Below are positions 2,608 through 3,422 of a DNA stretch of 34,472 nucleotides, piece by piece. Below the pieces are notes generated by a model, which saw nothing but the letters and a program-made list of their open reading frames with translations, searched no databases and had not been told where the DNA came from. The stretch comes from Fimbriimonadales bacterium (GTDB taxonomy: Bacteria; Armatimonadota; Fimbriimonadia; Fimbriimonadales; ATM1), in NCBI GenBank assembly GCA_035698285.1, contig DASSBY010000018.1, positions 1 to 34,472 of the forward strand, given 5' to 3'. A program made the translations under genes and the position numbers. Within the stretch, counting starts at the first letter, position 1; each line of letters starts with the position of its first letter.

Positions 2608-2811
2608 CTATTCGCCGCTTCTTTGACGGTATTTTTTGGCCTGATCGGGGTCGACCTTGCGCATTCGGCGCAATAATTCGTTGTCCCCGCCCGGCTTTGG
2701 GACCTGCCGCTTGGCTGGCCCCTCCTCGTCGCCCGGCTTGCGCTCAGGCGTCGGAAGGTCACGCTCGCGGCGTTCGATCGATGCGATCCCATGTTCGTTT
2801 ATGTACTTCAT
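2608..2811 (-). CDS. Pup-like small protein modifier, UBact-type (67 aa, C-terminal ...YRQRSGE)
   Basis: The protein is short, charged and looks disordered. Its tail ELLRRMRKVDPDQAKKYRQRSGE-stop matches my memory of the UBact C-terminal consensus (R-[TS]-G-[EQ] terminus). Its ATG overlaps the upstream msrA TGA stop as ATGA. Confidence 0.65.
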   Translation of the reverse strand: MKYINEHGIASIERRERDLPTPERKPGDEEGPAKRQVPKPGGDNELLRRMRKVDPDQAKKYRQRSGE

Positions 2812-3422
2812 CGTATTCTGCAGGCGCCGCCGGCGTGCTTACCGTAATATTGCTGGTGATAGTCCTCGGCCATCCAGAAGGTACCTGCTTTGGTGACTCG
2901 CGTACCGACAGCCGTCCCTCCGGCCCCGATCGTATCTATTTTGTGCTTGGCCAAAGCTGACTGCTCATCGGAAAAAGTGAAGATCTCGCTTCGGTACTGC
3001 TCACCGGGAGAGCACTGCCGACTCGGGTTATGGATTTCAAAGAAAACGTTCAACAGCTTTTCGTACGTCACTTTCGAAGGATCGTACTCGACGAGAACCG
3101 ACTCGGCATGCCCCGTCCGTCCGGAACACACTTGCTCATAAGTCGGCGAAGCCGTAACGCCGCCCGTATAGCCGACTGCCGTCGCAACAACGCCTGGGAC
3201 TTGGCGGAACTCCGCCTCGATTCCCCAAAATCACCCTGCTGCAAACAAAGCAAGCGCGTGCCCGTCGGCCAGAGCCTTAGCATCGCTATCGAGCCTCGTC
3301 GTGACTCCGCCGGGGTGGGTACCGACGCCGCTCGTGTCCGTCCCGCTGCCCATGTTTTGTATCCCTAGACCGGCGACCGCTGAGGCTGCAAGACCCATCG
3401 TTATCCAGTTCATCGTTCTCAT
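2808..3422 (-). CDS. msrA: Peptide-methionine (S)-S-oxide reductase MsrA with in-frame TGA (3231-3233) at the catalytic Cys position; candidate selenoprotein with an N-terminal signal-like segment
   Basis: ORFs 3231-3422 and 2808-3131 are in the same frame. Read-through gives ...HALALFAAG-[TGA][45 protein letters not shown]...EDYHQQY. The paralogue at 4187-4657 has [10 protein letters not shown] at the same place. AGGA lies 9 nt upstream of the ATG at 3422. Confidence 0.7.
3195..3227 (-). promoter_or_regulatory. Candidate bacterial SECIS hairpin downstream of the msrA UGA
   Basis: The mRNA reads UGA-UUU-UGGGGAAUCGAGGCGGAGUUCCGCCAAGUCCCA. The lower stem is UGGG/CCCA. The upper stem is GGCGG/CCGCC with apical loop AGUU, which starts 19 nt after the UGA. 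Confidence 0.5.

Follow-up and report, generated by a model that had tools for sequence, protein, structure and literature searches.

A leader-bearing msrA gene with UGA at its catalytic codon, very probably encoding a selenoprotein, in a Fimbriimonadales-like Armatimonadota lineage

Among bacterial selenoproteins, MsrA forms a recognised family, marked by a GUFWG/H motif (PMC13188914). The GOS data have yielded nine Sec-MsrA sequences (PMC2398784), an Olavius symbiont metagenome has yielded two (PMC1976440), and the Sec-MsrA of C. oremlandii has been structurally characterised (PMC4333827, PMC4479559). In Armatimonadota, a 2026 study described MAGs with Sec-containing hydrogenases and canonical SelC, as well as tRNA(ReC)-like tRNAs in five of five Armatimonadota genomes with UXXU hydrogenases, by which a UGA accompanied by a SECIS is decodable as Cys (PMC13582414). 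Sec decoding therefore occurs within this phylum. The gene analysed here lies in a stretch of 34,472 nucleotides (the 34-kb window), for which an earlier note had proposed a candidate Sec-MsrA, presented as a rare kind of enzyme (Chlamydomonas and a few Firmicutes) and as one not known from Armatimonadota. Population data, a SECIS-type hairpin and about 100 other TGA-bearing msrA genes all agree with the proposal itself. The supposed rarity is contradicted by the established status of the bacterial family (PMC13188914, PMC2398784) and by at least 104 metagenomic examples. As for the phylum, it was correctly named, as judged from GyrA, but its novelty was overstated, Sec-decoding genomes having already been reported there (PMC13582414).

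The proposed msrA(Sec) gene occupies positions 2808..3422 of the minus strand; it has 204 sense codons, UGA-64 being counted as one of them, and terminates with the TGA at 2810-2808. Read from 3422 to 2808, this strand translates as one MsrA frame whose sole internal stop is the TGA at 3233..3231, the proposed Sec codon for residue 64. The frame is open from 3230 to 2811, and the ORFs 3231-3422 (63 aa) and 2808-3131 (107 aa, GTG start) share it; that these two are split only by the TGA at 3231-3233 had been correctly described before, in coordinates and in alignment. Gene callers annotate them as a 63-aa hypothetical protein and a 107-aa PMSR fragment, and the putative selenoprotein is therefore invisible in current annotation. 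With Cys substituted at the TGA, residues 58-201 (2820..3251, minus strand) match the Pfam PMSR catalytic domain (PF01625) over profile positions 2-152 of 153 with E=2.7e-50. In alignments, FAAG-UGA-FWGIE is matched by GCFWG where homologues have Cys and by GUFWG where they have Sec; in over 80 Cys homologues, the catalytic Cys coincides exactly with the TGA. The protein is 50-59% identical to full-length MsrAs of the Cys and Sec types, and GYTGG, GHAES, QYRS, AEDYHQQY and the C-terminal Cys (ACRIR) are kept. We take the substrate-binding residues of MsrA to be the Tyr of GYxGG, the Glu of GHxE and the Tyr of QYRS. Such an alignment against Cys- and Sec-MsrA homologues had been suggested in the earlier note as a check, and it bears out the claim that the TGA replaces the nucleophilic Cys of GCFWG: the TGA stands at the catalytic Cys, also when aligned with the Cys paralogue in the window, and the motifs are preserved. 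This paralogue, a Cys-type msrA without leader at 4151-4657 on the plus strand (Pfam PMSR, E=9.8e-63; catalytic codon TGT), served as an internal control. Genome-wide UGA reassignment was ruled out, since TGA is the ordinary stop of 7 of the 21 window genes; the standard code is therefore used in the window.

In eukaryotic selenoprotein genes, the SECIS usually sits in the 3' UTR. The selenoprotein MsrA of Chlamydomonas reinhardtii (PMC9404770) resembles the window protein in having Sec at the catalytic position, but its eukaryotic SECIS type differs from the bacterial post-UGA stem-loop (PMC13188914). The Sec-MsrA of Clostridium/Alkaliphilus oremlandii (CoMsrA) has, like the window gene, Sec for the catalytic Cys and a UGA with a stem-loop directly downstream. 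It is of the 1-Cys type and carries an extra C-terminal helical domain (PMC4333827, PMC4479559), whereas the window protein lacks such a domain and stands apart by its N-terminal leader, by a C-terminal Cys (ACRIR) as in 2-Cys exported homologues and by its Armatimonadota origin.

A candidate bacterial SECIS was delineated at 3196..3225 (minus strand) from fold energies and the bSECIS rule. Its lower stem pairs 3225-3222 with 3199-3196, and its upper stem pairs 3216-3212 (GGCGG) with 3207-3203 (CCGCC) around the apical loop AGUU (3211-3208). The upper hairpin GGCGG-AGUU-CCGCC (3216-3203) has an energy of -9.8 kcal/mol and both stems together reach -15.3 kcal/mol; the distance from the UGA is 14 nt to the stem and 19 nt to the loop. 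PMC13188914 sets four constraints for bSECIS elements: the apical loop has 3-9 nt and its upper stem 4-16 bp; one of the first two loop positions is a G, with G or U usually coming next; the loop lies 16-37 nt from the UGA; and the energy is at most -7.5 kcal/mol. The window hairpin lies within these limits on four counts out of four (loop AGUU, with G at position 2 and then U; 5-bp stem; 19 nt; -9.8 kcal/mol). A SECIS after the UGA had been put forward as a further check on the Sec proposal; the hairpin conforms to the published rule, and Rfam covariance models gave no SECIS, searches of the whole window at gathering thresholds and of 2700-3500 at E≤10 returning chance miRNA-type matches only. 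The Rfam result weighs little because bacterial SECIS elements are short and diverse.

When the window peptide was re-encoded synonymously with the codon usage of the window, 3.8% of the re-encodings reached equal hairpin stability. No SECIS-type hairpin was found after the TGT codon of the Cys paralogue (4151-4657), where the bSECIS rule failed. The bulk folding z-score over 3160-3236 was non-significant (z=0.46); the hairpin signal is local and lies outside the bulk folding energy of this region. In Cys genes encoding EAEFRQ, hairpins of this register are weaker (-6.3 to -7.0 kcal/mol), and the EAEFR peptide tends to encode a palindrome, or weak hairpin, unaided. Additionally, the closest full-length Cys homologue (P0002; L217:1075-1122) has a stem-loop right after its TGC (-16.1 kcal/mol, loop GCGAU), which could be a SECIS fossil or a structure pre-adapting the gene to a SECIS. 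Because of this palindrome tendency and of the P0002 stem-loop, the hairpin alone is only moderately specific. It can be regarded as moderately strong evidence, with a likelihood ratio of roughly 30-40, short of proof.

Metagenomes were scanned with the pattern G-TGA-F-W-G-x-E-x-x-F, which matched at least 120 loci. Among the 120 pattern matches listed, 104 were MsrA homologues with TGA at the catalytic codon (phmmer E<1e-3 against the window Cys paralogue, read through the TGA), and the homologous frame continues 130-200 codons past the TGA in most of the at least 104 Sec-MsrA loci. Controls were Cys-MsrA genes of reference genomes, among the matches listed (80 genomes; 81 genes scored). The loop starts 22-23 nt from the U of the UGA in 77/99 Sec genes among the matches listed, and Sec-MsrA loops in this shared register are GUU, AGUU or AGUUC, centred on the Phe codon; the Cys-MsrA controls (80 reference genomes, among the matches listed) displayed no preferred hairpin offset. 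Median hairpin energies, again among the matches listed, were -7.8 kcal/mol for Sec and -2.6 kcal/mol for Cys genes (Mann-Whitney P=1.5e-18). Likewise, 57 of 99 Sec genes among the matches listed passed the bSECIS rule, 52 of them at spacing 19-20, versus 10 of 81 Cys genes, with a single one (1/81) at that spacing. The helix of the Sec-MsrAs covaries: 54 double-change cells were counted where shuffles gave 22.7±3.8, and none of 500 shuffles reached as many; covarying stem pairs of the Sec set include UCCC/GGGA, GCCC/GGGC, GCGG/CCGC and GGAG/CUCC. A covariance model was considered and not built, the explicit rule and the energy comparison being preferred: such a model is a less clean test because its training set combines two registers and coding sequence shared with the Cys controls.

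The Sec-MsrAs closest to the window protein among the matches listed are L163 (59% identity in the catalytic domain) and L125 (55%). Both share the peptide GUFWG(I/V)EAEFR with the window and have the identical upper hairpin, GGCGG-AGUU-CCGCC, in the register seen there. Unlike in the window gene, a hydrophobic leader is missing in L163, and in L125 the frame upstream extends for 10 codons only; both also keep the canonical NRQGLDFGSQYRS loop and have longer stems (8 bp). The majority of the at least 104 matches (loci L089-L208) belong to a very abundant Sec-MsrA-like subfamily with the motif ...GDHTETVQVDY, whose members mostly have signal or lipoprotein leaders and a covarying hairpin AAUCCC-GGUUC-GGGAUU. 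This subfamily resembles the window gene in its TGA at the same codon, its hairpin on the Phe codon and its GUU loop, but its members are only about 40-47% identical to the window protein, lack CSG.TGHAE and have UCCC/GGGA stems.

The N-terminal segment MRTMNWITMGLAASAVAGLGIQNM (3351..3422, minus strand) is hydrophobic, with a top 15-residue hydropathy window of 1.81, and is predicted to be a signal peptide or membrane anchor through which the protein would be exported. It aligns with the leaders and lipoboxes of the exported Cys-MsrAs P0002, P0003, P0004 and P0018, several of which have lipoboxes or membrane anchors. These exported or lipoprotein Cys-MsrAs (Polyangiaceae/Labilithrix-type) are 50-57% identical to the window protein over 85-100% of the length. 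They have a leader, the linker VGT.PG.V, the pre-active-site sequence GH.LA.FA.G and the C-terminal Cys in common with it, but carry TGC/TGT (Cys) at the catalytic codon. In view of the shared leader, linker and pre-active-site sequence, the upstream 63 codons are therefore considered a genuine part of an exported-type MsrA. The earlier note was aware of no Sec-MsrA with a signal-like N-terminus; a strong hydrophobic N-terminal segment was present in 48 of the 76 Sec-MsrAs with a complete upstream ORF among the matches listed, and such an N-terminus is therefore not unusual among these Sec-MsrAs.

In a search of 5.8 billion proteins, the top full-length matches were Cys-MsrAs of 205-233 aa with 50-58% identity, and no full-length match exceeded about 60% identity. 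The 63-aa N-terminal fragment, used as a protein query, retrieved its own population cluster only. By these two routes, the protein search and the N-terminal query, no orthologues were found outside this population. All 80 reference-genome loci listed have Cys at the catalytic codon and none has TGA; the best reference-genome match listed, 49% identical, came from an Armatimonadetes MAG. The window protein differs from canonical MsrAs in the loop HNPSRQCSPGEQYRS (2970-3020, minus strand; residues about 132-146), which is 4 residues shorter than the canonical HxPTTxNRQGPDxGxQYRS, lacks the Asp of RQGPDxG and contains an extra Cys, on which one may speculate as a possible resolving residue. In three Sec-MsrAs (L144, L160 and L148) the loops are comparably shortened and the Asp of RQGxDxG is likewise absent. 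The shortening of HNPSRQCSPGEQYRS is not read as decay because of these similarly short loops.

An exact-match look-up of the protein encoded downstream (UBact) located contigs at nine places, in different JGI metagenome samples. The population is carried by the JGI metagenomes 3300047676, 3300047677, 3300047147, 3300047145, 3300047149, 3300047150, 3300047152, 3300047154 and 3300048101. The split call of 63 aa + 107 aa is repeated on every contig extending that far. Seven further contigs from separate metagenome samples cover the whole msrA gene, and all read GGG TGA TTT; the same TGA in seven separately assembled contigs is therefore no assembly accident. Together with the window they make 8 population sequences, representing 7 distinct haplotypes with 13 variable sites, and no second stop or frameshift was found in any of the 8 sequences beyond the shared TGA. 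Third codon positions account for 10 of the 13 variable sites in the msrA frame, compared with 1 and 2 in the other two frames. Nei-Gojobori site counts give a pN/pS of ~0.08 before the TGA and ~0.10 after it; the binomial P is 9e-5 overall and, with 6 synonymous to 2 non-synonymous changes, 0.003 for the half downstream of the TGA alone. Counted by site, the changes over msrA are 9 synonymous to 4 non-synonymous, and by this count the constraint on msrA is similar to or above that of neighbouring bona fide genes. As every haplotype carries the TGA, this constraint acted with the TGA in place. Purifying selection on either side of the TGA would hardly be expected if translation stopped at codon 64. 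Finally, 57 msrA codons are one step from a stop, and the single one at which a stop codon stands is that of the catalytic Cys.

Taken as a whole, the population data, the hairpin in the family register and the comparison with about 100 TGA-bearing msrA genes support the Sec-MsrA reading. We consider it likely that the gene encodes a genuine Sec-containing MsrA, probably extracytoplasmic, which would be produced by standard bacterial SelB/SECIS decoding. From these sequences we infer the SelB/tRNA-Sec decoding, the export and the identity of the resolving Cys. A SelB-type elongation factor would bind the stem-loop 19 nt past the UGA and deliver Sec-tRNA(Sec), so that the ribosome would insert Sec at residue 64 and continue into the catalytic domain, and the N-terminal leader would take the protein to or across the membrane. 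There it may act as a peptide-methionine (S)-S-oxide reductase with Sec-64 replacing the nucleophilic Cys of GCFWG. Its selenolate would attack methionine-S-sulfoxide, and the selenenic acid intermediate would be resolved, probably by the C-terminal Cys of ...GGACRIR.

Another possible explanation is that a TGC/TGT to TGA change inactivated a redundant exported msrA, translation now stopping after 63 residues. Such a loss might be tolerated thanks to the intact Cys paralogue at a distance of 1 kb, and this history would agree with a 34-kb window devoid of Sec machinery, with the shortening of the conserved loop (HNPSRQCSPGEQYRS) and with the failure to find orthologues attesting long-term retention. 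However, the TGA is fixed across the 7 haplotypes and none has acquired a second lesion, while purifying selection has continued in the half downstream of it, with 6 synonymous against 2 non-synonymous changes (P=0.003). A nonsense mutation also had 57 codons one step from a stop at its disposal, and the change struck exactly the catalytic Cys. It would moreover have been followed by a bSECIS-compliant hairpin in a register that, among the matches listed, was seen in 1 of 81 Cys genes. We therefore judge a nonsense pseudogene unlikely. It is highly improbable that the TGA arose as an error of sequencing or assembly, or that it is an ordinary stop with low-level near-cognate readthrough: TGA is indeed one base from TGC/TGT, but 7 other contigs, each assembled independently and from different samples, also have it while varying at 13 further sites, and neither error nor readthrough explains the SECIS-type hairpin and the downstream constraint.

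A third scenario keeps the SelB/SECIS-dependent recoding of the UGA but has it read by a tRNA(ReC)/SelC*-type tRNA, which would give Cys, or a Se-dependent mixture of Cys and Sec, at residue 64. The cis elements (UGA and hairpin) are identical for either tRNA, and tRNA(ReC)-like tRNAs accompany canonical SelC in five of five Armatimonadota with UXXU hydrogenases (PMC13582414). However, no such tRNA occurs in the window, the lineage studied in PMC13582414 may differ from that of the window, and UGA with a SECIS is far more commonly used for canonical Sec insertion, so that this scenario receives little credence from us. Equally doubtful is a more adventurous proposal in two independent parts: that the protein is an extracytoplasmic, conditionally Se-dependent repair enzyme, by way of Cys from tRNA(ReC) or of a Sec/Cys switch, or that the coupling of msrA with the UBact gene (see below) has its basis in a functional connection of UBact tagging with the repair of methionine oxidation.

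Returning to the Sec-MsrA reading, the window gene is very probably a selenoprotein gene of an already known kind and not a broken gene. If this is true, an oxidative-damage-repair selenoenzyme is added to a Fimbriimonadales-like Armatimonadota lineage, and Sec-decoding machinery is implied for the source lineage. Leader-bearing, probably exported Sec-MsrAs appear to be widespread in metagenomes, as far as their sequences can tell. A simple re-annotation rule can be proposed, in which a SECIS loop on the Phe codon of GUFWGxExxF marks such genes. The observation is useful for annotation and for mapping Se use in Armatimonadota; it will not surprise specialists, and the understanding of Sec biology is unchanged by it.

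Directly downstream of msrA lies a UBact gene (2608..2811, minus strand; Pfam PF20513, E=1.8e-18), whose ATG overlaps the msrA TGA (ATGA, 2808-2811). This overlap suggests that the two genes are co-transcribed and translationally coupled, which is therefore probable. No Pup-ligase or proteasome-type genes were found in the window, and a promoter and terminator scan of 2400-3700 gave nothing above chance. At the exported Cys-MsrA loci P0002 and P0003, there was no UBact neighbour and nothing bearing on Sec.

MAGs labelled Armatimonadota or Fimbriimonadales have GyrA proteins 77-80% identical to that of the window, which places the uncultivated source organism in Armatimonadota, near Fimbriimonadales; DUF1559/prepilin-type proteins and UBact agree with this placement. 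No selA, selB, selD or tRNA-Sec was found within the 34-kb window (40 ORFs against Pfam; ARAGORN; Rfam), nor any further candidate selenoprotein gene. Other in-frame-TGA candidates in the window lay opposite long ORFs of the other strand, or, for the one at 16644-16646, looked like intergenic spacer. In three relatives (L209, L212 and L213; GyrA 79-83% identical), gene order around gyrA was not conserved and no msrA was present there. A DUF5117/DUF4953 Met-zincin gene is directly upstream of gyrA in L212 (7193-9907) and L213 (7200-9929), whereas the window counterpart (24055-26730, minus strand) is more than 10 kb from gyrA, on the other side. These differing positions therefore indicate local rearrangement between related Armatimonadota.

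Five long ORFs of 250-457 aa have no Pfam match, namely 21094-22467, 9026-10243, 28068-29048 and 26834-27817 on the minus strand and 14391-15143 on the plus strand. DUF1559 (SBP_bac_10) matches were obtained for three proteins, at 148-858 (plus strand, below the Pfam cut-off), 1597-2508 (minus strand) and 32266-33057 (plus strand), and two of the three also have an N-terminal methylation motif. A tRNA-Pro(GGG) is located at 33087-33164. A COX15/CtaA gene is also present in the window, and the lineage therefore probably respires oxygen.
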